From contig JACPPH010000002.1 in the NCBI GenBank assembly GCA_016191105.1, forward strand, positions 141,931 through 205,930: DNA of 64,000 bases. The letters are read 5' to 3'. This document shows, in pieces, positions 4,977 through 62,413 of this stretch. The position numbers and the translations under genes are program-made. This DNA comes from Candidatus Saccharimonadota bacterium (lineage in GTDB: Bacteria > Patescibacteriota > Saccharimonadia > CAILAD01 > BJGX01). Below the pieces are notes generated by a model. That model made no database searches. It was not told the DNA's origin and was given only the letters and a program-made list of their open reading frames with translations. The number at the start of each line of letters is the position of its first letter. Position 1 is the stretch's first letter.

Positions 4977-6011
4977 ATGCCACTTACTAAAACTACTAAG
5001 CGTCCCGACATCAATAAGCGCCGGATTATCAACGGCGTTGATGCCGATGTGGTGCAGCTGCACCCTATGAAACACAACTTTGCTTGGGAGGCCTATAATA
5101 CCGGCAATGCCAACCACTGGCTGCCAACCGAAATTGCTATGCAAGACGACATAGAGATGTGGAAATCGGGCAAGCTGACCAGCGACGAGCGCTTGGCTTT
5201 CGAAACAGCCTTGGGCTTTTTTACCACCGCCGACTCGATTGCCGCCAACAATCTAGTGCTAGCTTTTTATCGACACGTTACTAGCCCCGAGGTGCGCATG
5301 TACTTACTGCGTCAATCTTATGAGGAGGCCATTCACACTCATGCCTATCAGTATATTGTGGAAAGTTTGGGCCTAGACGGTGGTAAGATCTTTAATATGT
5401 ACCGCGAAAACGCCTCGCACTTTTCGAAAGCTGACTTTATTTTGACTTTCAACGAGGGTGTGTATGATCCTAAGTTCAAGACCGGCACCTTTGAGGCCGA
5501 TCAGAAATTTTTAGAAAATATGTGCGTGTTCTCGTTGATTTTGGAAGGCATATTCTTCTACTCCAGCTTTGCTGTGATATTTGGTTTTCAGCGCCAGCAC
5601 AAGATGACCGGCAGTGCCGAGCAGATTCAGTACATTATGCGCGACGAGACTGTGCACCTCAACTTTGGCATTGATATGATTAACACCATTAAAGATGAGC
5701 AGCCCGAACTCTGGACCAAGGACTTTCAAAAACGCATTGTTAAGCTGGTAAAAGATGCTGCTAAGCTCGAATACGCCTATGCCAAGAACGTTTTTCCACG
5801 CGGCATATTTGGTATGAACGCCGATGGCTTTCGTCAATACATAGAGCACATTGCCGACCGTCGCCTAAGTCGAGTCGGCCTGCCGCCTCAGTTTAATGTC
5901 GACAATCCATTCCCGTGGATGAGCGAAGCTGTCGACCTAAGTAAAGAAAAGAACTTCTTCGAAACTCGAGTAACCGAATACCAAACCGGCGGCACTCTTA
6001 ACTGGGAATAA
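4977..6011 (+). CDS. nrdB: Class I ribonucleotide reductase, beta subunit
   Basis: 344-aa ORF with SD AAGGAG, starting 22 nt after nrdA. Ferritin-like di-iron motifs are present (EEAIHTHAY, RDETVHLNF). Confidence 0.95.
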   Translation: MPLTKTTKRPDINKRRIINGVDADVVQLHPMKHNFAWEAYNTGNANHWLPTEIAMQDDIEMWKSGKLTSDERLAFETALGFFTTADSIAANNLVLAFYRHVTSPEVRMYLLRQSYEEAIHTHAYQYIVESLGLDGGKIFNMYRENASHFSKADFILTFNEGVYDPKFKTGTFEADQKFLENMCVFSLILEGIFFYSSFAVIFGFQRQHKMTGSAEQIQYIMRDETVHLNFGIDMINTIKDEQPELWTKDFQKRIVKLVKDAAKLEYAYAKNVFPRGIFGMNADGFRQYIEHIADRRLSRVGLPPQFNVDNPFPWMSEAVDLSKEKNFFETRVTEYQTGGTLNWE

Positions 6012-6012
6012 G

Positions 6013-6657
6013 CTAGATCAATTCTCTCTTGTCATCTGAAACGACGACAGCTTGATCGTCATTGATTGATACCACTTCCACTCCTTTGGCATTGAACGAC
6101 TCTTTGATTGATGCAATTATGTAGCCATACTTTTGGCTGTCGGCGTGAACAAGCGGTTCAAAATCAACCAAATTAAGTCCCTCCCACATAGCTTCGGGGG
6201 CCTCTTTTGGATCATCTGCTAGGTCAAAATATTTTAGCGATGGGCTCAACACGATTGCGCCAGCACTTCCGCCGCCAATAACTAGCCCGTTATTAGCCTC
6301 TTTGGCGAGAATCTTGTCTGCGCCAACCTTGTGCAACCAATATCTTAAATAGAAGGTGTTTCCGCCACCCATAAACACCCCGTCGGCAGATTTGATCTTA
6401 TCTAGCAATTCGTCTTGCTTGTTTACATAGTTCCTTAAATCTATTGCCTCTTACTTAATGTCGTAATCGCCTAAAATGGCATCATCCCTGTTGCGCTGGG
6501 TTACAAACACGCTGCCCTTATAATCTGAGGCATTATGGATCGTTAAGACAAGTGGCTTTTTTTGTCCACTTCGCTCTGTAGCCAAAAGCTTTTTGTAAAC
6601 AGGTATTAATTTGTCAGGAAGCTGAGCTAAGTTAAGAGACGAAAGAAATAGCTTCAT
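6013..6657 (-). pseudogene. S51 (peptidase E-like) peptidase gene interrupted by one in-frame TAA
   Basis: ORFs 6451-6657 and 6013-6408 are in the same frame. Translation across the gap reads ...GDYDIK-TAA(6453-6451)-EAIDLRNYVNKQDELLDKIKSADGVFMGGGNTF...GGGSAGAIV, one continuous peptidase E-like sequence (GGGNTF motif and SAG nucleophile). Confidence 0.7.
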
Positions 6658-7229
6658 ATGATCTCCATGATAGCGCTTAAGTACTCTTTTTGACCAATGT
6701 CGTGTTTGCCATTTGGGACTACCTTAAGTGTTGATTCTCTAATGACGGAATTTGCACGTTTGGCTACAGTCATCATTTCCGGTTCCCTTACTGATTCCTT
6801 TTCTCCAACAAGCAAAGTGGTTTTAGATTTAATCTTTTTGCCAGCTTCTAATAAAGAAAAGCTCTTAAAATCGGCCGCTCTATGTTTTCCAATGGATTTG
6901 GCCCAGCTGTCGGGAATCGTCTCCATATCTTCTGCAAAGAATGGTGACAAGGAACACAATACCAGTCTGTCTGGGCAGAACTTAGCTGCGCTTATAGTGG
7001 CTATCATCGCCCCAAACGAAAATCCTAGTACCAGGTTGAAGTCTCCACTTTTTGAGTTATATAGTTCGTTGAATTGAACAACATAGTCGCTCATTATTTT
7101 ATATCTCCAGTCAATATTGACCTTAACGGTCTCAAAAGACTGTTGTGCTAGCCTCTTTGAAATTTCATCGACACCCTTTCTTTCAGGTGTTTCGGTATAG
7201 CCTGGGACTATGAAAGCTACTTTTTTCAC
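6654..7229 (-). CDS. Small alpha/beta-fold hydrolase
   Basis: 191-aa ORF with nucleophile elbow GFSFG and a late His (NGKHD). It has 4-nt overlaps with both neighbours. Confidence 0.6.
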   Translation of the reverse strand: MKKVAFIVPGYTETPERKGVDEISKRLAQQSFETVKVNIDWRYKIMSDYVVQFNELYNSKSGDFNLVLGFSFGAMIATISAAKFCPDRLVLCSLSPFFAEDMETIPDSWAKSIGKHRAADFKSFSLLEAGKKIKSKTTLLVGEKESVREPEMMTVAKRANSVIRESTLKVVPNGKHDIGQKEYLSAIMEII

Positions 7230-33484: not shown

Positions 33485-33815
33485 AAGCTATAAGCTCCTT
33501 TCATAGAAGTATTAGTTAATTAAATAGCGTTCTCGTTCGGTTGTGTATATGCAATGTAAAAGGACTTTTGTATCTATTGAGCAGTAATGGTACTATATTA
33601 TACGCTTTAAGTCAATAGATAATTGTTATGTTTTTGCAGGGTTTTTCGAAAGGCCCTGAGATCAAGTTTTTTATGAAAGCCTGATCTCAAAGACTTATAG
33701 TTTCGGGTGGGTGTCGTCCCGGAGACCGAAGTCTCCAGGACGAGCGACACCCAAGAGTGGACTCTGTGTGCCATCGCACCGCGAATTGAGTCCGCTAATT
33801 CGCGGTGTTTAAGCC

Positions 33816-35306
33816 CTAGGCGGGCTTGGGCGACGGACCGGGCGGGGCCGTCGTGGGTGGCACCGGCGCCGAGCTGGGCGGCGTTGCCCTGGTGGTGGGC
33901 GGGCTTCCCCCCGGGCACAGCTGCGGACAACCGGTGCTCGGGTTCGGCACTCCTGGATTGATGTCCGGGTTGGGCGGCCTGGGGGTCACCCCACCGCAGC
34001 CACTTGGACCACAGCCTTTCACCGGCGCCGGCACAGCCGGATTGCTGATAGGCTGCTGCTCGGCGATCTTGCCCTGAGGCTTGGTCGTCGGCGTCGTCAC
34101 CGTCGGCGGTGGGATGGTCGGCCCTCCCGTCGGCGGGGGCGTCACCGTCGGCGGTGGGATTGTTGACTCCGGTGGCAGGTTTGGCGGAACCGGCACCTGC
34201 GGCACGTTCGGCGTGGGCTTGAGCGACCCCCTGTTCCCGCACGAGGCGAAGAACATGATGTATGCGTTGTCCTTCCAGAACTTCACGTACAGCCGGGGCG
34301 TGCTGGTGACGTAGTCGAACTGCACCACGGTACCGTTTTGCACGACTGTGTTGTACAGGCGGGTACCCGCTGGCAACACTCCACGTTCCACCATGGAACC
34401 TCGAACGAAGTCCAGCACGATGAACAGATCCCAACCGGCCTTGGCGGCATCGCCGACCGGGCGGGGGTCCTCGTAGGGCTTGTCTTGGCTGGCCATGATG
34501 GTCCGCGCCGCATCGTCCAAGAATGCCGGGCTGCCAACACCCTTCAGGAGCAAGTCGGAGAACATGTCCTCCGGCGTGTTTCCTTGGATGCCGTTGAGCA
34601 CAACACACTTGGTCTCACACGTCACGCCCACTCCCTGTACGAGGCCACGGCGCTGGGCAATCTTCTGAACGAAGATGGCAAGGTCGACGGTGTCGGGCTG
34701 ATGCGGTGGCGCCGTGCTTGGCGGTGTGGTAGCCATAGTTGTTGGCGCAGCTGTGCCTTGCGGTTGTGTCCCGCTCGGTACTGCCGTGGTGGTGGAAGGA
34801 GCCGTGGTGTCGCTGGGCGATGTGCTTGGCGTTGAACCACCCCCGTTGCTGGTGGTGGTAGTGACGCCGGCCAGGATTGCGACGCACTTGGTGTCTGGCG
34901 GGTCCACTCCGAGTTGCTTGAGCTTGTCGGAGCTTTCCTGCACCACCTTGGCGTCGTCGCTGCCAACTCCCTGGCACAACTCGACTGTCAGCTTGAGACA
35001 TTCGGTCGGCGTGATGCCGGCCTCTTGCAGCTTCTTGTCGTCGTCGGAGTTGTTGGTGACTCCGATCCGCTTCTGGCAGTCCTCCAGACTCACCTTGGCC
35101 TTGCGCTCTTCGGTGGTTGCGGGCGGAACAGACGCGGTCGGCGCTGGCACCTGGGTGGTGTCGGAGCCTTGAGGCCCAGGTGATTGCTGGGTTGGTTGGG
35201 CACTCGCAGTGCCGCTTTTGGCTGCAATACCGGCTACACCCACCGCCCCCAAAAGGACAGTGAACACAACCGCGCAAGCAGCGAAGATCGCATGACCCCT
35301 GGTCAT
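33816..35306 (-). CDS. Signal-anchored secreted protein, Pro/Thr-rich linkers, Cys-containing domains, unknown function
   Basis: ATG at 35306 preceded by GGAGGTGA. MTRGHAIFAACAVVFTVLLGAVGVAGIAA anchor, a globular middle, and a PPPTVTPPPTGGPTIPPPTVTT tail. The ORF-track upstream extension to 35387 has no SD. Followed by an 11-bp perfect hairpin at 33777-33807. Confidence 0.7.
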   Translation of the reverse strand: MTRGHAIFAACAVVFTVLLGAVGVAGIAAKSGTASAQPTQQSPGPQGSDTTQVPAPTASVPPATTEERKAKVSLEDCQKRIGVTNNSDDDKKLQEAGITPTECLKLTVELCQGVGSDDAKVVQESSDKLKQLGVDPPDTKCVAILAGVTTTTSNGGGSTPSTSPSDTTAPSTTTAVPSGTQPQGTAAPTTMATTPPSTAPPHQPDTVDLAIFVQKIAQRRGLVQGVGVTCETKCVVLNGIQGNTPEDMFSDLLLKGVGSPAFLDDAARTIMASQDKPYEDPRPVGDAAKAGWDLFIVLDFVRGSMVERGVLPAGTRLYNTVVQNGTVVQFDYVTSTPRLYVKFWKDNAYIMFFASCGNRGSLKPTPNVPQVPVPPNLPPESTIPPPTVTPPPTGGPTIPPPTVTTPTTKPQGKIAEQQPISNPAVPAPVKGCGPSGCGGVTPRPPNPDINPGVPNPSTGCPQLCPGGSPPTTRATPPSSAPVPPTTAPPGPSPKPA

Positions 35307-35529
35307 CCGATCACCTCCTTGTTGTTGTCTGGGTGATGTAAAGCTGCGAACTGGGTGCAGGTTTTCTCTCCTGTACTCAGCCCACATATCAGATTACACT
35401 CTTTTCGTCTATACACAAGTATAAATCTCACATTTGGGTTGAGCGGGTGGCGCCCGGCGGGAACTCGATCCGAAGATCGAAGCTCCCTGCCGGGACCACG
35501 AGGTAGGGGCCAGAACGTCATCCTGACCG

Positions 35530-36006
35530 CTACTTTGTGCCGTGCTTGAACAGCGCCGTGCAGCCGATGATGCCACCGATCACAAACGGGGCAAGAAATG
35601 CCACGATCCGTGGCCCGCCTGCGTCCGTGAGCATGGCAGCCACGACTGCACTGCAGATTGCTGCGAACACCGTTGCAAAGCAGCCCATGAGCACGCCCAC
35701 AAGGATGTGGAGGCTCTTGCCATTGGCTGGGTCTGCGCCGCCGCCAGCGGGTGGCGGCGGTGTGGCGGCATTGGCCGATGGATCGCGTGTGAGGAACCAG
35801 AAGGTCCCCCCTGCGCCACCCAGGCCAACCACCAGGGCGGTGAGGAATCCATACAGCCACGACCAATTGAGTCCTGCGACTACAAGGGTCACGAGCAGCA
35901 GGACTCCGCCAATCACCCCGCTGATGATCAGCTGGGTTTGCTGGTCGAGCCCACCTCCGGGCGATGGGGCCGGCGCGGCATAGCGCGCACGGTTGAAACC
36001 AGGCAT
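35530..36006 (-). CDS. Small integral membrane protein (about 4 TM), unknown function
   Basis: ATG at 36006 preceded by GAAGGTGG. 158 aa with four hydrophobic segments and a Pro/Gly/Ala loop. Followed by hairpin 35453-35494 with a central CGAA loop. Confidence 0.65.
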   Translation of the reverse strand: MPGFNRARYAAPAPSPGGGLDQQTQLIISGVIGGVLLLVTLVVAGLNWSWLYGFLTALVVGLGGAGGTFWFLTRDPSANAATPPPPAGGGADPANGKSLHILVGVLMGCFATVFAAICSAVVAAMLTDAGGPRIVAFLAPFVIGGIIGCTALFKHGTK

Positions 36007-36027
36007 AATGCCCACCTTCTTTCGTAT

Positions 36028-36106
36028 ATGTTCGGGAGCGGTACCTGGTCGTGAACTTCATTGTTCATGTGCCCTCACGGGGGCAATATACCAGGATAGC
36101 GATCCT
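36028..36106 (-). repeat. Promoter/operator/leader module, copy 1 (upstream of the 4-TM protein gene)
   Basis: Minus-strand reading: AGGATCGCTATCCT palindrome, TATATT, GCCCC, GTGAGGGCAC, stem-loop CATGAAC..GTTCACG, GACCAGGTACCGCTC, CGAACAT. Near-identical to 36469-36545. Confidence 0.75.
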
Positions 36107-36172
36107 GAAATTGTGGGTCACGAGCGGCCGCGCTCCGGGGTAAACCGGAGCACAGCCTCTCGCGTGGCGAGA

Positions 36173-36454
36173 TCACGTGAGCACTTGGTCGATGATCTCG
36201 AGCATTGCGGCCTTGAACGCCTTGTTGGCATCTTCGTCCACAACGTCCGGGAAGGACTTCAAGAAGTCGGGGCCACAGAGGTCGATCATGGCCTGCACGC
36301 CTTCCTTGTTGAACTTGACCGTGCCGCCGCCGCTGATCTCCAGTTGCTCGAGAGCAACCTTCTGCAGCAGCTCCAGGGCGCGGGCCTTCATGGCCGGGTC
36401 GGCGTCGGCTGTTGCCGACTTGGACTTCTCGTAGCGGTCTTTGCTGAACGCCAT
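36173..36454 (-). CDS. Small acidic protein (93 aa), paralogous to the C-terminus of the 415-aa protein
   Basis: ATG at 36454 preceded by AGGAGA. MAFSKDRYEKSKS...FLKSFPDVVDEDANKAFKAAMLEIIDQVLT. The long ORF-track extension (to 37117) is an out-of-frame shadow across the upstream gene. Confidence 0.65.
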   Translation of the reverse strand: MAFSKDRYEKSKSATADADPAMKARALELLQKVALEQLEISGGGTVKFNKEGVQAMIDLCGPDFLKSFPDVVDEDANKAFKAAMLEIIDQVLT

Positions 36455-36468
36455 GATGATTCTCCTGC

Positions 36469-36545
36469 ATGTTCGTGAGCGGTACCTGGTCGCGAACCGA
36501 AGTTCACGTGCCCTCACAGGGGCAATATACCAGGATAGCGATCCT
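36469..36545 (-). repeat. Promoter/operator/leader module, copy 2 (upstream of the 93-aa gene)
   Basis: Same module as 36028-36106. The stem-loop here is CGTGAAC-TTCG-GTTCGCG, so the loop sequence differs while the stem is retained. Confidence 0.75.
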
Positions 36546-36570
36546 AACATTCTGTTGAGTTGGCCGGGGA

Positions 36571-36599
36571 GCTCCGCTGCACACAGTGTGCAGCGGAGC
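36571..36599 (-). terminator. Perfect 14-bp GC-rich hairpin after the 415-aa gene (no U-tract)
   Basis: GCTCCGCTGCACAC-A-GTGTGCAGCGGAGC, 27 nt downstream of the TAG at 36627-36629 and immediately upstream of module copy 2. Confidence 0.6.
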
Positions 36600-36626
36600 C
36601 AACCCCGTTTACCGCTCCCGGTAAAT

Positions 36627-37874
36627 CTAGTCGTCGGCGAAGACCTCCTCGATGATGTCGAAGAACGCGGCGTAGAACACGTCGCGATCGGACTCGAAGT
36701 CACCGTTGGGATACTTCTCGAGGTAGAGGTTGAGGGCGCAGAACGCCACATCGGTGATCCCTTCCTCACTGAACGACCATGGCTTGCGAAGCGGGTCGCG
36801 CGCCCACATGCCGACGGGTGTGCGCTCGATGCACTGCTTGGCTGTCGCCACACGCGCGTCGAAGTTCGGTGGCCGAACATTGGAGCGTTGCTGTCCCGAA
36901 GGACCGCCGCGCGAACCAGCACCCGAACCACTGCTACCACCCGGTCGACTCGACGAGCCGCCACTGGCGCCAGCACCCGACCCGGACTTGGGCCGTGCGC
37001 CTCTGCCAGAGGAGCCACCTTGCGAGCCGCGTGGTCGTTGCCCATTGCCGCCGTTGCGAACGAAGATCCCCTCGAGATTCTCTCGAGTGATGTCGTCGTT
37101 CCGGTCCGGATGGGCAAACGCCAAGACGCTTCGCCAGCAGAACTTGGCCCACTTCTTGCGGTCGCCGTAGGTGAACTTCTCGCCCTTCGGGTCCACCTTG
37201 CGAGCCTCGGCCTCGAAGATCACCATGATCTGGGTCATCCAACCCCGGTACTGGCGATACAAGTCCTGCTCTTCTGGTGTACGACGCGCGAAGGCGGTGA
37301 AGCGCGCCAGGTTGTCGTCGTCTCGTGGTGGCGCGCCGAACTCGGCATGCAAACCCTGGACACCCGAGAAGTTCTCGCGGATGCCAGAGATCGCGGTGTT
37401 CAGCTCTGTGATCTCTCGATCGTTCATGTCGTCTCCCTCCTGGGGGTCTTTGGTTCCCCCCGGAGGGGATGTAGGTTCTGGTTCTTCTGCAAGATCGAGC
37501 ATGAGCGTGACGATGCCACGCTTAACCATCTCGAAGCTGGCGTTGGCTTTGCGTGTCGCGTTGAGGTTGACCCCAACAATCCGACGCACGAGCCGCCACG
37601 GCTCGGGGTCTTGCTCGGTCGCTTGTACGGGTATGCCTTGTGCTTCGAGCCATGGCACCCAGTCTTCGTAGGAAAGGGTTGGCTCGGGGTCTTCGCCTTC
37701 TGGTGGTGTGTCACCTGCCCCTGAATCTTCAAGGACTTTACCAAGTGCCACCAAGAAGTCTTCTTCACCCACCTGTCCGTCATCGGCAAGCTTGTCGCCC
37801 AGTTCAACAATGAGCTTGGGCTTAAGGTCGATCGAAACTTCCAGGTCAGCACATAGCGTTTCGAGATGCGGCAT
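36627..37874 (-). CDS. Acidic 415-aa protein with a J-domain-like HPD motif and a Gly/Ser-rich linker, function unknown
   Basis: ATG at 37874 preceded by GAGGAGGG. KKWAKFCWRSVLAFAHPDRNDD (HPD codons 37112-37104) resembles DnaJ helix II plus the HPD loop. It is followed by a roughly 55-aa G/S/R-rich stretch and a C-terminal domain alignable to the 93-aa protein. Confidence 0.7.
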   Translation of the reverse strand: MPHLETLCADLEVSIDLKPKLIVELGDKLADDGQVGEEDFLVALGKVLEDSGAGDTPPEGEDPEPTLSYEDWVPWLEAQGIPVQATEQDPEPWRLVRRIVGVNLNATRKANASFEMVKRGIVTLMLDLAEEPEPTSPPGGTKDPQEGDDMNDREITELNTAISGIRENFSGVQGLHAEFGAPPRDDDNLARFTAFARRTPEEQDLYRQYRGWMTQIMVIFEAEARKVDPKGEKFTYGDRKKWAKFCWRSVLAFAHPDRNDDITRENLEGIFVRNGGNGQRPRGSQGGSSGRGARPKSGSGAGASGGSSSRPGGSSGSGAGSRGGPSGQQRSNVRPPNFDARVATAKQCIERTPVGMWARDPLRKPWSFSEEGITDVAFCALNLYLEKYPNGDFESDRDVFYAAFFDIIEEVFADD

Positions 37875-54345: not shown

Positions 54346-54479
54346 GCGCATCCACCCCCAAGTTTCAGTGCGCATAATTCAAAAATATCCAAATTGTTTT
54401 TCTGCCAACGTTGGATCATGTAATTATAGTGTAACAAGCTACAAGGGCTGGTACTAGATAAAATCAGGTTTAAATTGCG

Positions 54480-55460
54480 TAGAAATGAAGAAGGGGCCCG
54501 AAGACCAGTGGTCGCGATGATCTCGCGAACCCCTTCTTCAGACCCCTGTGGGGACTGTCCCGTGCTACTAGTCCGACCAGACTTCCGGTGCGCTGTGCCG
54601 GGTTTGCCGGGCGCCATGCCAGTCGGTCTCGAGCAGAACCCGATTGCTGGCCAAGTTCCACTCCAGACGAGGAACCCCCACCCATGTGCCGTCTGGCAGG
54701 CAGAGCTCATAGCCAGCCATCTCGACGTAGGGCAGACGCTTGCCATCCTGCTGCTGAAGCAGCTTGGGGTGGTAGGCGTAGGCCGCCAAGACCTCAGCGT
54801 GGGCCAAGTTCCTGGACTTCTTCTCGGATCGCTGACAGATGTTGCCAACCATCCGACCTTTCGAGGGCTCCCAGTTCGCCAACAGATCGATGTGGACCAG
54901 GTGGATGCCCCGCTCGTAGTTGCACGCAGAGGAGTTGAGACGGAGATGATCCGCATCGGCGCACATACGTTCGGCACGAGTGTTGTCATGATCAACGCGG
55001 ATCACTCGCCACCACGTCTCGAAGGTGGCATCGGGCGAGCCGAGGTCGACATAGAGCAGCAACAGGTCGTCGATCTGTTGCGCATGCTCCAGATCGTCCT
55101 CACTGAAGACACGCTCGAAGTCCTCGTCGCTGAGGGCGTAGTTCCAATACCCGGCGTTGTATTCACGCAGGAGCGCCATCTGCTCATGGATTGTCAACAG
55201 CTGAGCGTTGTAGCGGTCATACAGGCCCTCAACCGAGAACTTGCCGTCCACCAGAGCTTGCAGCCCCGCGATTGCCTCGTCAGCTGGACGCTTGCCACTC
55301 TTGACGAATTCGAAGAGGCGGTTGTACACCACCCCCAGGTCGCCGAGCTCCTGTCGTGTAGCTCTCTTGGCCATCTTAATGGCCTCCTTTGCCGGTGTTC
55401 ATCCACGCTTACACTGTGTCGTGCATCGTGGTCTCAAGCCTCAGCTTGAGAGCGGCGCTT
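54480..55460 (-). other. High-GC island 2: single ORFan gene between the CPBP protease gene and mreB
   Basis: 38/60 G+C at 54601-54660. Shadow ORFs on both strands. AT-rich backbone sequence on both flanks. Confidence 0.75.
54568..55374 (-). CDS. Hypothetical 268-aa cytoplasmic protein, no recognised family
   Basis: ATG at 55374 preceded by AAGGAGG. Balanced amino-acid composition, unlike the Arg/Pro-rich overlapping ORFs. A GC-rich compound hairpin at 54487-54539 lies 28 nt after the stop. Confidence 0.65.
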   Translation of the reverse strand: MAKRATRQELGDLGVVYNRLFEFVKSGKRPADEAIAGLQALVDGKFSVEGLYDRYNAQLLTIHEQMALLREYNAGYWNYALSDEDFERVFSEDDLEHAQQIDDLLLLYVDLGSPDATFETWWRVIRVDHDNTRAERMCADADHLRLNSSACNYERGIHLVHIDLLANWEPSKGRMVGNICQRSEKKSRNLAHAEVLAAYAYHPKLLQQQDGKRLPYVEMAGYELCLPDGTWVGVPRLEWNLASNRVLLETDWHGARQTRHSAPEVWSD

Positions 55461-55503
55461 TATAGTTAAAAACGTTAACCACCATGCTTCTGTCAAGGTC
55501 TTG

Positions 55504-56247
55504 TTATCTGATCCAACCGGCAAGCAAAGCAAAAGCCAGCAAGTTGTTGAGCATGTGCAAAAATATGCCAGGAACAATGCTTTTGAGCCGCATATACATT
55601 AAACTCAAGAACATACCCAGCAAGAAAGTATAAATAATTACATTGGGCTGAAAGTGCAAAACAGCAAACAATATGCTGCTACCAGCCGCCCCAATTAACC
55701 AACCCCAGCGGCGCACCAAGGTTGGCAAAATCACCCCCCGAAAGTATATCTCCTCGACTATAGGCACGATTACTACGGTCGAGGTAAAACTAAATGCTAG
55801 TCCTGCCCCTGACTTGCCAAATTCAAAGCCCACAGCCTGAGGTGCATCGGCATTAAAGCTTGGCCAAAGCACTTTTATAGCCACATAGCTGATTGCCACT
55901 AAAACGACTGTTAATATGTAGAACAATACAACATATCCGGCCGAGTTCAGTGGCTTAAACTTACGCAAGCCAAAGTCAACTAGCTTAAGCCCGTATTTTT
56001 GCTTTAACATGAGCAAAACCAGGAATTCGATGGCTACGGTAATCAGCGTGAGGCTCACCCCAGACCAATACGGGTCGGTAACAAAAAAACTACTTAAAAA
56101 GCCTGGGAGCAAGCGGCTTTTAGCCAAAATAATAAGCATAATATAAAAACCAACCGGCAAGGCAACTATCATTGCCAGCGCCTTGGCGGCATCGCGCAGC
56201 CGCCAAGCTACGCCGGCAATCGCAAGATCTTTGCGCAAGGGATCCAT
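55504..56247 (-). CDS. CPBP-family (CAAX-type) intramembrane glutamic protease
   Basis: Motifs EEIYFRG, FAVLHF, HMLNN. The start is uncertain: ATG at 56247 or 56328, or TTG at 56379. Confidence 0.7.
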   Translation of the reverse strand: MDPLRKDLAIAGVAWRLRDAAKALAMIVALPVGFYIMLIILAKSRLLPGFLSSFFVTDPYWSGVSLTLITVAIEFLVLLMLKQKYGLKLVDFGLRKFKPLNSAGYVVLFYILTVVLVAISYVAIKVLWPSFNADAPQAVGFEFGKSGAGLAFSFTSTVVIVPIVEEIYFRGVILPTLVRRWGWLIGAAGSSILFAVLHFQPNVIIYTFLLGMFLSLMYMRLKSIVPGIFLHMLNNLLAFALLAGWIR

Positions 56248-60481: not shown

Positions 60482-60680
60482 ATTTCTCCTTGATAGCCTC
60501 GCTGCAGTATCCCAGTTGGGAGGAGCTTGCTGCAGGTGCGTGATTTAATACATTTAAGTGCAATAATTGTAACAGATAGGCTTAAGATGGTCAAAAGCTT
60601 CATAAAATGACGAAAGCCCCCGGCGAGGGAGTCAGAGACTCTCGTCGAGGGCTGTTGGTGTTCTTCGAGCTCGAGTGGGC

Positions 60681-61163
60681 TCAGGCCGGCACGAGGAGTT
60701 CGAATTCCTGAGTGACCGGGTTAAACCGGCGGAGGTTCTCGAGCTTTGGAACCTCGGGGAGGAGCTCGAGCGTGCCGGGCGGAAGACGAATGTTGTCCGC
60801 CGAGATCAGCACGAAGTCCATGAAGATCATCTTGTAGTCACCCAAGGGGCGCACAAGCTCTTCGAGACGCTTCGAGTGACCATCTCCCTCATCGAACAGG
60901 TTGAGGAAGGCATAGGCCCGAGACTGGCGCTGCGAAAGCAGAGGGGATCCTTCTCGCCGAACGCGACCAAGCTCCTTGGTGAAGGCGCCATAGTCATCGA
61001 TCCCCAGCGGGATAACGAAGCCCATTTGGCCCGAGTTCTCAGGGTTCCTCTCAGGATCAAACCCCAACCCGAACACGAACACCGCGCCGAAGGTCACGGC
61101 AACGAACCTCGCCACTGCGTACCCTTCATGCTCGCCTTGGCGGCGAAATTGCTGTGGCTCCAT
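60681..61163 (-). CDS. Hypothetical 160-aa protein, no recognised family
   Basis: ATG at 61163 preceded by GAAAGGGG. The codon third positions I read are mostly G/C. An imperfect GC hairpin at 60615-60653 lies 27 nt after the stop. The overlapping plus-strand ORF (60675-61298) has shadow-like composition. Confidence 0.6.
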   Translation of the reverse strand: MEPQQFRRQGEHEGYAVARFVAVTFGAVFVFGLGFDPERNPENSGQMGFVIPLGIDDYGAFTKELGRVRREGSPLLSQRQSRAYAFLNLFDEGDGHSKRLEELVRPLGDYKMIFMDFVLISADNIRLPPGTLELLPEVPKLENLRRFNPVTQEFELLVPA

Positions 61164-61206
61164 TGGGGAACCCCTTTCTGTCGAAGATCAGAAACACAGT
61201 ATACCA

Positions 61207-61497
61207 CTAACGGTGTTGCTTGTCAATGGTACTTAATGCCTCCCAGATTACATCAAATTTGGCCTGGAGATCGGCTCGATACCAATCAGGGCGCTTAGAG
61301 GCCCAACAGAACTGGTCGACCGCTACAATCCAGCACATCTGGAGCTGTGTTTGGGACAGTACTTTACACGCAGTCTGTGCAAAAACCTCCCACAGAGGCT
61401 CTAATTCACCCAAAGGGCAGGTTTTACGCAGCACCGACTTCAGTTCTCGCTTTCCAGGAAGCTTAACCTGGTCCATATCAAAACTGCTCACTTTCAC
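61207..61497 (-). CDS. Hypothetical ~90-aa Trp/Cys-containing protein
   Basis: GTG starts at 61497/61491 just after GGCGGAG, with a TATAAT (61530-61525 on the minus strand) upstream. The start and the coding status are both uncertain. Confidence 0.4.
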   Translation of the reverse strand: MKVSSFDMDQVKLPGKRELKSVLRKTCPLGELEPLWEVFAQTACKVLSQTQLQMCWIVAVDQFCWASKRPDWYRADLQAKFDVIWEALSTIDKQHR

Positions 61498-61593
61498 TCC
61501 GCCGGGAATGAGTGTGACAGTAAGATTATACTCCTAAAATGGCAAATGCCCCCAGAACTGGGGGCGTCTGCCTCCATCCTGAGGGCTTGCGTA

Positions 61594-62295
61594 CTAGTCG
61601 AGCCTTGTCATGATGCCCGTCGGATCCAGCCGCTCGAGCGCAGCAGTTACCGCCACAGCCTTTGCCACCATTTCGCCGCCTCGGGCAACGCGGCTTTGGC
61701 CGGTACTGCCAACGGCCTTAGTAACCGAATTGACCAGGCAGAAGCCTGGGTGGCTAGAGCCCAGGTTGGGGTTCTTGTCACGTTCAGCGTCTTCATAGAT
61801 CAACTCCAGGAGCCGGTCGTCAGAGACCACCTCGAAGTTTATCTTGGTCACTATCTCGGTAACTGCAGTCCTGTTGTGGTCGAAGCCCGCCTGATTGTCC
61901 ACGTCGGTCGTGTACTCAAACTCCAACATCAACAGATTGCCCGACTGCAGCATCCAGAAGCTTCGGTATTTCTTGGCCTCACGAAAGTGATGCTCAACAA
62001 GCAAGATCGCCCTCGTCGAAAGCATCTCGCTCTGCAGGAAGCTGTCGTCGTAGACCCGCTGGGCGACGTTTCGGAATTGGTATGAACCAGCGCCCGGACG
62101 TTCCCAAAGGTGCTTCTTGATTGCCTCTGGCTTCATGGTGACATACTCCATGTGTGGCCCGAGGTCGTGCAGCCACAGCAGCACGAAGTCGTGCCACTCC
62201 TCTGGAGTGACTTCGGCGGGCGGGATGTATTCACCGCCGCGCATTACGGCTCGGCGAACCGCGGCCTTCACTTCTGGCCTGTTGGACGAATCCAT
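61594..62295 (-). CDS. Hypothetical 233-aa protein, no recognised family
   Basis: ATG at 62295 preceded by AAGGAG. MDSSNRPEVKAAVRRAV.... An 8-bp GC hairpin GCCCCCAG/CTGGGGGC (61548-61565) lies 28 nt after the stop. The ORF-track extension to 62367 lacks an SD. Confidence 0.6.
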   Translation of the reverse strand: MDSSNRPEVKAAVRRAVMRGGEYIPPAEVTPEEWHDFVLLWLHDLGPHMEYVTMKPEAIKKHLWERPGAGSYQFRNVAQRVYDDSFLQSEMLSTRAILLVEHHFREAKKYRSFWMLQSGNLLMLEFEYTTDVDNQAGFDHNRTAVTEIVTKINFEVVSDDRLLELIYEDAERDKNPNLGSSHPGFCLVNSVTKAVGSTGQSRVARGGEMVAKAVAVTAALERLDPTGIMTRLD

Positions 62296-62413
62296 TGCCA
62301 GGCTCCTTTGCTGTACCTTGGGGCGTACCCCTACCAGTATCGTTGCGTCGTCGCAGGTTTGCGACAATCAAGCTAATTGAACCATTAGCGGAGTTCATAT
62401 GCAAACGTAACAG

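Follow-up and report, generated by a model that had tools for sequence, protein, structure and literature searches.

Introduction

The defining signature of a diversity-generating retroelement (DGR) is a layout of target, template repeat (TR), Avd, and reverse transcriptase (RT) in which the mismatches between TR and variable repeat (VR) are adenine-specific. The DGR variable proteins Mtd of the Bordetella phage BPP-1 (PDB 1yu0) and TvpA of Treponema denticola (PDB 2y3c) have a C-type-lectin fold. High-confidence GC-rich inverted repeats could be identified in only 34% of the DGRs surveyed (PMC5758913), and Guo et al. showed for phage BPP-1 that efficient retrohoming depends on a hairpin of this type (PMC3240598). 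Cellular "clade 2" DGRs have been described from CPR bacteria (Roux et al., 2021, PMC8144416; Wu et al., 2018, PMC5758913), and their authors suspected that the targets are novel C-Lec variants (PMC8144416; PMC5758913). For this "CPR set," the VR classes UVR1-6 were given (Wu et al., 2018, PMC5758913). CPR DGRs mostly have a single adjacent target, as surveyed by Wu et al. (PMC5758913). Non-adjacent targets are documented as well, some of them more than 100 kb away (PMC5758913), and the remote targets of the Treponema and Legionella type lie far from any RT and have a matching TR elsewhere (Wu et al., 2018).

The DNA analyzed here is a 64-kb stretch (the window) of a 214-kb contig of Candidatus Saccharibacteria, and its subject is a GC-rich island with a single gene between an Rce1-like gene and mreB. 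The original prediction took this gene for an acquired orphan whose position could feed read-through into mreB, and which may belong functionally with two other islands of the window. As described below, the relatives of the gene share the host group of the clade 2 CPR DGRs (Roux et al., 2021, PMC8144416; Wu et al., 2018, PMC5758913), and like these they belong to chromosomal, non-viral elements and have targets without transmembrane or Pfam domain. Taken as a whole, we hold with moderate confidence that the island is a solo DGR-target module, its fixed state included.

Results

The island block (54483-55456) has a GC content of 59.8%, compared with an average of 48% over the whole window and with 33% and 38% in the flanking spacers. 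The stretch 54601-54660 has a G+C of 38/60, and the description as a GC-rich block of about 1 kb with one gene between AT-rich spacers was thus accurate. Windows of 807 nt with at least 60% GC account for 4.6%, and all of them lie within the island at 33.5-37 kb or the mreB-side island. The module edges that result from the homology to relatives (55456..54483) coincide with those originally given. The CDS (54568..55374, minus strand; HYX70_01230, MBI2797906.1) encodes 268 aa, with a helical N-terminal part and a putatively C-type-lectin-like C-terminal domain, and the Shine-Dalgarno sequence AAGGAGG (55383..55389, minus strand) is placed 8 nt before the ATG, a position that is conserved in the family leaders. 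Gene, Shine-Dalgarno sequence, and the hairpins on either side (55432-55451 upstream; arms within 54486-54540 downstream) are all found as described. The junctions, which the original prediction had wanted to see confirmed, are both present in the independent Logan assembly of SRR12113392, which is 100% identical across 11,865 bp, and the island is therefore no assembly or binning artefact.

With HYX70_01230 as query, Pfam, PHROGs, PADLOC, and NCBIfam returned only noise and no family could be assigned, and the remark that no family motif is recognizable was therefore fair. A single-sequence search found three close homolog clusters, and the nearest relative, P0002, is 54% identical (E 3e-83). 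By profile search, the family comprises about 60 clusters at 90% identity with E-values down to 1e-144, and 373 representative clusters at E<=1e-3. Its members have about 210-300 aa and none contains a Pfam domain (0 matches with 51 members), and the named ones come from Saccharimonadales, Uhrbacteria, and other Patescibacteria. The gene is therefore not an orphan but one of many members of a Patescibacteria family of DGR targets, and with respect to CPR-wide orthologs of similar GC at the same locus, which would have spoken against an orphan, CPR-wide homologs with similar GC do exist, but not at this locus. No relative of the family is encoded on IMG/VR viral contigs, and a phage origin of the whole family was therefore no longer considered, even though the relative at locus L005 adjoins ParB and serine recombinases.

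A profile search against PDB sequences gave 0 matches, and Foldseek found no significant match in the PDB for the predicted structure. AlphaFold on a four-sequence alignment reached a pLDDT of 33 and was unusable; a later structure model of the window protein was confident. Because the Foldseek and sequence searches against the PDB were not significant, we predict a C-type-lectin-like C-terminal domain of the family protein with moderate confidence. The FGE/sulfatase-modifying-factor fold (SUMF2, PDB 1y4j; C-terminal domains of EgtB and OvoA) was also compared with the family, which differs in that the corresponding Pfam model matches 0/51 members and in that there is no sign of the catalytic residues. 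The window protein has no hydrophobic segment, which agrees with the reports on CPR DGR targets (PMC8144416).

The function of the family became apparent from the neighborhoods of the homologs, which contain RVT_1 genes, a bAvd gene, and serine recombinases, with RTs annotated in Saccharibacteria, Uhrbacteria, and other Patescibacteria. Nine gene copies at eight distinct loci (L004, L005/L135, L001/L003, L009, L010, L014, L152, and L154, the last with two copies) are linked to a DGR, and the 3' end of the family gene is the VR: a second copy of its last ~128 nt is found 0.4-1.5 kb further downstream. As a rule, the target is followed by the TR, then by bAvd, which is encoded on the opposite strand, and finally by the RT. 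In total, 156/160 TR/VR mismatches are located at TR adenines (L004, 19/19; L005, 13/14; L001/L003, 11/12; L009, 21/21; L010, 18/20; L014, 20/20; L152, 21/21; and the two targets of L154, 17/17 and 16/16). These VR/TR pairs with adenine mismatches, together with bAvd and RT, identify the family as DGR targets, and the window gene is very probably a member of this Patescibacteria-wide DGR variable-protein family. As in Mtd and TvpA, the C-terminal VR of the relatives carries TR-templated, adenine-specific changes, the variable residues are found in the last ~45 aa of the CLec-like domain, Avd and RT are encoded beside the target, and an IMH-like end and a GC-rich hairpin past the stop codon are present. 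In the DGR-linked members, CAC comes after the stop codon, then a small hairpin and a GC-rich hairpin that is conserved (GGAGGNCC-TTGG...CCTTGG-NCCTCC), and last a terminator hairpin. The GC-rich hairpin has a z of about -6.5 in L010 and L011, and it is weak in L005 (z -0.6).

At L010 (7064-11284), a whole DGR cassette lies between a KH-domain gene and trmD, and at L014 (5911-11781) between ftsH and ruvB, and these placements within conserved housekeeping runs resemble that of the window gene, which has the Rce1-like gene on one side and mreB on the other. In L005 (7392-13485; also L006, L007, and L135), the locus of the nearest relative of the window gene, clpP lies between VR and TR. The neighbors of this cassette are ParB, HTH regulators, and two serine recombinases, and the surroundings resemble an integrated mobile element. 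L154 (3188-5493) is a two-target Patescibacteria DGR, with tandem paralogs of 270 and 303 aa and one common TR, and L137 (8883-10762) has two tandem family members at a contig end, the upstream one of which is akin to the divergent P0059 subgroup. A decaying DGR is found at L001 (10001-12117) and L003 (132-2248), where the target is frameshifted (P0003), the RT is a 372-nt fragment, and a serine recombinase is encoded directly upstream, with 11/12 VR/TR mismatches still adenine-specific. In L011 (2127-6312), a 24-27-nt repeat occurs at no fewer than seven intergenic positions (2127, 2739, 3492, 4489, 4937, 5663, and 6291) in the vicinity of an RT. We rejected this RT as partner of the L011 family copy, as its identity to the DGR RT clade is only 26% over 147 aa and no matching TR is present.

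Other family copies have no TR, Avd, or RT nearby. In the locus census, such solo copies are L011/L140/L141, L136, L139, and L143. When variability was counted within 90%-identity clusters, the DGR-linked P0002 had 27 variable columns, all at column 240 or beyond and in part due to one frameshifted member, and the DGR-linked P0014 had 14, all in columns 240-271. This VR-confined hypervariation is absent from the solo clusters P0030, for which more than 20 contigs of various sources all have the same sequence, and P0018, where (P0018/P0345, with P0345 from the solo locus L136) ordinary substitutions are spread along the whole protein. Hypervariable and fixed copies of the family hence coexist in nature. 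The window protein itself is a single known sequence.

The 5' leader (55375..55503, minus strand) takes up all of the sequence between the Rce1-like/CPBP gene, whose stop codon is at 55504-55506, and the start codon of the island gene, and its family-conserved part begins 8 nt past this stop codon. It can be aligned across ten family loci (the window, L001, L004, L005, L009, L010, L011, L014, L137, and L144), with the equivalent leader of the relatives covering the 130 nt upstream of the family genes. Three stems on the minus strand were recognized, namely the family-conserved P1 (55496-55486 with 55456-55446; TTGAGAGCGGC/GCCGCTCTCAA) and P2 (55482-55475 with 55468-55460), and P3 (55432..55451; TCTCAAGC/GCTTGAGA, also given as CTCTCAAC/GTTGAGAG), which is the 8-bp hairpin described originally. 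In the RNAalifold consensus, 92% of the P1 and P2 cells pair, compared with 37-46% when the partners are slid, and the covariation score is above that of all shuffles (500/500). Three of the five broken P1 cells belong to the window copy. P3 is found in 7/10 of the leaders in the alignment, and its fold has -11.7 kcal/mol (z -2.2). Two compensatory changes support this stem, a G-C pair in the window copy and, in L009, a G-C that replaces A-U. Since the 5' arm of P3 and the 3' arm of P1 have CTCTCAA in common, the two stems are mutually exclusive, and the three broken P1 pairs should favor P3 in the window copy. The ten sequences are thus suggestive of a two-state P1/P3 leader structure. Rfam returned for the leader and the 3' hairpin only a sub-threshold sRNA match (19.5 bits versus a gathering value of 45, E 0.4), and the leader may represent an undescribed cis-regulatory RNA of DGR target genes.

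At the other end of the module, a compound hairpin (54483..54551, minus strand), whose arms TGAAGAAGGGG/CCCCTTCTTCA are at 54486-54496 and 54530-54540, folds with -36.6 kcal/mol (z -4.5), and 0/200 shuffles were as stable. The homology to L005 covers 55456-54709 with 68.5% nucleotide identity and resumes at 54551-54483 with 90% identity over 70 nt (L005 10881-10949), where the counterpart (-34.0 kcal/mol, z -5.1) separates the DGR hairpin from the gene that follows. Terminator-type hairpins occupy the same position in other family members. The compound hairpin has no canonical T-run and is not listed by the consensus scan; judged from conservation and placement, it is probably the intrinsic terminator of the module. 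The TATAAT near the island edge is present as described (54423..54428, minus strand, 55 nt past the edge), lies outside the module upstream of mreB (called start 54345), has no acceptable -35, and is not listed by the consensus scan. Given the conserved 3' hairpin with its 90% identity to L005, the terminator hairpins elsewhere in the family, and the distance of 222 nt to the called start of mreB, read-through into mreB is less likely than termination, and the terminator hairpin probably insulates mreB from the island gene.

The composition of the island is foreign to its host, and the same GC3 is found in nearly all family copies, whatever the host. It is 0.72-0.92 in 11 copies and about 0.58 in L138, whereas at the same loci the RTs have 0.37-0.55, the Avds 0.47-0.61, and most housekeeping neighbors are near the RT range; the hosts of the high-GC3 copies have 41-53% GC. 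The GC of the island can therefore neither date a transfer nor indicate its source, and GC as a mark of acquisition had to be given up: a high GC3 is a family trait, and it is the RTs and Avds that match the host. Along the gene, the excess stays at the same level, and it ends abruptly at either edge; a GC3 gradient toward the VR, as local conversion would predict, was not seen. On average, third positions of the family genes outside the VR consist of A 0.07, T 0.13, C 0.45, and G 0.35, and those of the RTs have A 0.22 and T 0.30. Although A is found at only 2-11% of the third positions in family genes, an adenine-specific depletion was rejected as cause of the high GC3, as T is depleted almost equally, which is the generic pattern of GC-rich genes. 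The members are only 30-54% identical and yet have a high GC3, and at such divergence a passive donor composition should have decayed, which implies some active force at synonymous sites. High-GC3 genes are not limited to DGR targets in these genomes, as the DGR target of L009 is directly preceded by pyrD and pyrF (5405-7058), which have a GC3 of 0.73-0.75 in a locus of 52% GC.

No two of the genomes examined have the family gene at the same place in the chromosome, and the window gene has therefore arrived at its position by insertion at some time. What remains of the "acquired gene" is thus a discrete one-gene module that was once inserted; GC as the sign of its transfer does not remain. No integrase, transposase, tRNA attachment site, or target-site duplication was found at the island edges, and the nearest tRNA is 35 kb away. 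An imperfect 14-nt inverted repeat around the island (12/14; 54410-54423/55504-55517) is probably meaningless, as we estimate that chance alone gives two to three such pairs in 1.2 kb. Exact-protein look-ups of MreB and the CPBP protein, in search of strains without the insert, led only to the same sample.

A functional tie to the two other islands, as considered originally, did not find support, as the islands are not similar in sequence and the 310 kb of family loci contain no homolog of the other two, and the proteins of island 1 (33651-37850) and island 3 (60601-62350) have neither a Pfam match nor similarity to the family profile. Island 1 is a 4-kb block of 61-63% GC whose ORFs, with a GC3 of 0.69-0.74, encode a Pro/Thr-rich protein of 523 aa with an N-terminal hydrophobic segment, a membrane protein of 161 aa, and a protein of 415 aa. 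Two of its intergenic stretches share a direct repeat of 53 nt (36063-36115 and 36502-36554), the copies of which are 91% identical. Island 3 has 57-58% GC, with an ORF of 257 aa (61594-62367, minus strand; GC3 0.72) and one of 207 aa on the opposite strand.

Discussion

Our data suggest that the island is a self-contained module, in which a structured leader, the CDS, and a terminator hairpin would be combined. In the usual state of the family, TR, bAvd, and RT just downstream would rewrite the VR, i.e., the last ~128 nt, by adenine-mutagenic retrohoming, and thereby diversify the ligand-binding face of the predicted C-type-lectin-like domain. The window copy appears to encode an intact binding protein with its own expression signals that is probably cytoplasmic, where it probably binds a ligand. 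The cis and trans parts for diversification may have been lost by this copy, or they may never have been brought along. Its binding site would now be fixed and would evolve by ordinary substitution. We therefore regard a fixed, still-functional solo copy that is no longer diversified as the most likely state of the window gene, and the clusters P0030 and P0018/P0345 provide precedents for such copies.

The alternative that has to be taken most seriously is that the gene is an active remote target, whose 3' end is rewritten in trans by a DGR elsewhere in the genome. Besides the documented non-adjacent targets (PMC5758913), the solo copies L011 and L143 argue for it, as they retain the IMH-like end and the strong post-VR hairpin, which suggests that trans-targeting occurs in the family. 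Like the remote targets of the Treponema and Legionella type (Wu et al., 2018), and like L011 and L143, the window copy is far from any RT, and it has kept an intact ORF and the post-stop CAC motif. However, those remote targets have a matching TR elsewhere, whereas no TR is known for the window copy. The VR-equivalent region (54577..54705, minus strand), as aligned to the VR/TR pairs of five loci, has no second copy that could be the cognate TR in the 64-kb window, neither by repeat search nor by blastn with the VR and foreign TRs at word size 7, and tblastn with six RTs and four Avds detected neither RT nor Avd in the window. The TR-end signature of the clade is present in the window at chance level only. 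These searches covered 54 kb downstream, which is the usual side of TR and RT, and 9 kb upstream, and as the 64 kb belong to a contig of 214 kb in a still larger genome, a DGR may lie elsewhere. The RT profile search with its 7,720 matches is uninformative on this genome, with none from the HYX70 genome among the 120 matches listed.

Further objections come from the gene end itself. The post-stop segment TAGCAC-GGGACAGTCC (54552..54567, minus strand) is the site where the relatives have the small and the GC-rich hairpin; in the window copy, the local fold of this segment is no better than that of shuffles (z -0.26), the conserved hairpin-core pattern has 0 matches in the window, and the interval from stop codon to terminator is 21 nt (54547-54567) compared with 70 nt in L005. 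The VR ends with GTCTGGTCGGACTAGTAGCAC instead of the GGGAGTCGTAGCAC of the family, and the IMH-type boundary, which in the family is GGGAGTCGTAG-CAC followed by hairpins, is GTCGGACTAGTAG-CAC with no hairpin core. The window copy, unlike L011 and L143, hence is without the recognition hairpin. The missing hairpin is weaker evidence than it may seem, since the active-looking L005 also has a weak one and inverted repeats were found in only 34% of DGRs (PMC5758913). The scaffold of the VR is nevertheless unusually diverged: non-adenine mismatches to foreign TRs amount to 37-48%, compared with 12-31% among the DGR-linked members, which makes it the most diverged of the set, and the near-invariant Trp of the WAAPV motif is lost. 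In addition, single adjacent targets prevail in CPR DGRs (PMC5758913). Together, these aspects render an active remote target rather unlikely, though it keeps more weight than the explanations below.

It is also improbable that the gene is a decaying relic, i.e., a functionless former DGR target on its way to a pseudogene. Such decay does exist in the family, as seen with the frameshifted target and the RT fragment of L001/L003, and the accessory parts of the window copy are gone, three P1 pairs are broken, and near-invariant residues are changed (F111L, Q129H, R180C, A250T, and W to H in WAAP). Against this stands a full-length ORF with no frameshift and no stop, in which all eight family-invariant residues (8/8) are kept, and Shine-Dalgarno sequence, leader hairpin, and terminator are intact, the 3' element being 90% conserved; the structure model is confident, and the high GC3 has been retained. 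Least of all do we believe in a recently acquired orphan from a high-GC donor whose GC marks the transfer, since sharp edges with 60% GC next to spacers of 33% and 38%, the lack of matches in curated families, and the differing loci between genomes are outweighed by membership in a DGR target family, by edges without mobility genes, tRNA genes, or target-site duplications, and above all by the family-wide GC3 of homologs with 30-54% identity in hosts of 41-53% GC whose RTs and Avds match the host, which largely refutes this reading.

Accepting a fixed, still-functional solo copy as the best explanation, the novelty lies in the family-wide anomaly at synonymous sites and in the conserved leader rather than in the position next to mreB. 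In the searchable literature, we found no mention of a gene-wide GC3 excess of DGR targets, and no description of the conserved leader or of the split into hypervariable and fixed solo copies, and in these three aspects the family appears to go beyond what is described for the clade 2 CPR DGRs, although it may correspond to one of the published UVR classes. It is conceivable, but in our view doubtful, that the GC3 excess and the two-state leader both reflect an undescribed cis-level constraint on Patescibacteria DGR targets. A candidate would be selection or a biased repair that keeps the target adenine-poor and GC-rich beside an adenine-mutagenic RT, and another a recognition at the nucleic-acid level or a regulatory role. 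If there is such a constraint, then the solo copy of the window, which has kept the signature without a nearby DGR, would be a natural control.

In summary, a hypothetical and possibly foreign gene turns into a DGR-type binding protein that has parted from its diversifying machinery, and the idea of foreign DNA that is wired into a cell-elongation operon is removed. A lone high-GC gene may be the signature of a family and is no proof of recent transfer, which calls for caution in the search for genomic islands. The sequence-defined, domain-less family, for which layout, post-VR hairpins, and leader are now described, can be used for the annotation of Patescibacteria genomes, and its coexisting hypervariable and fixed copies offer a route to the fate of DGR targets after the loss of the retroelement.
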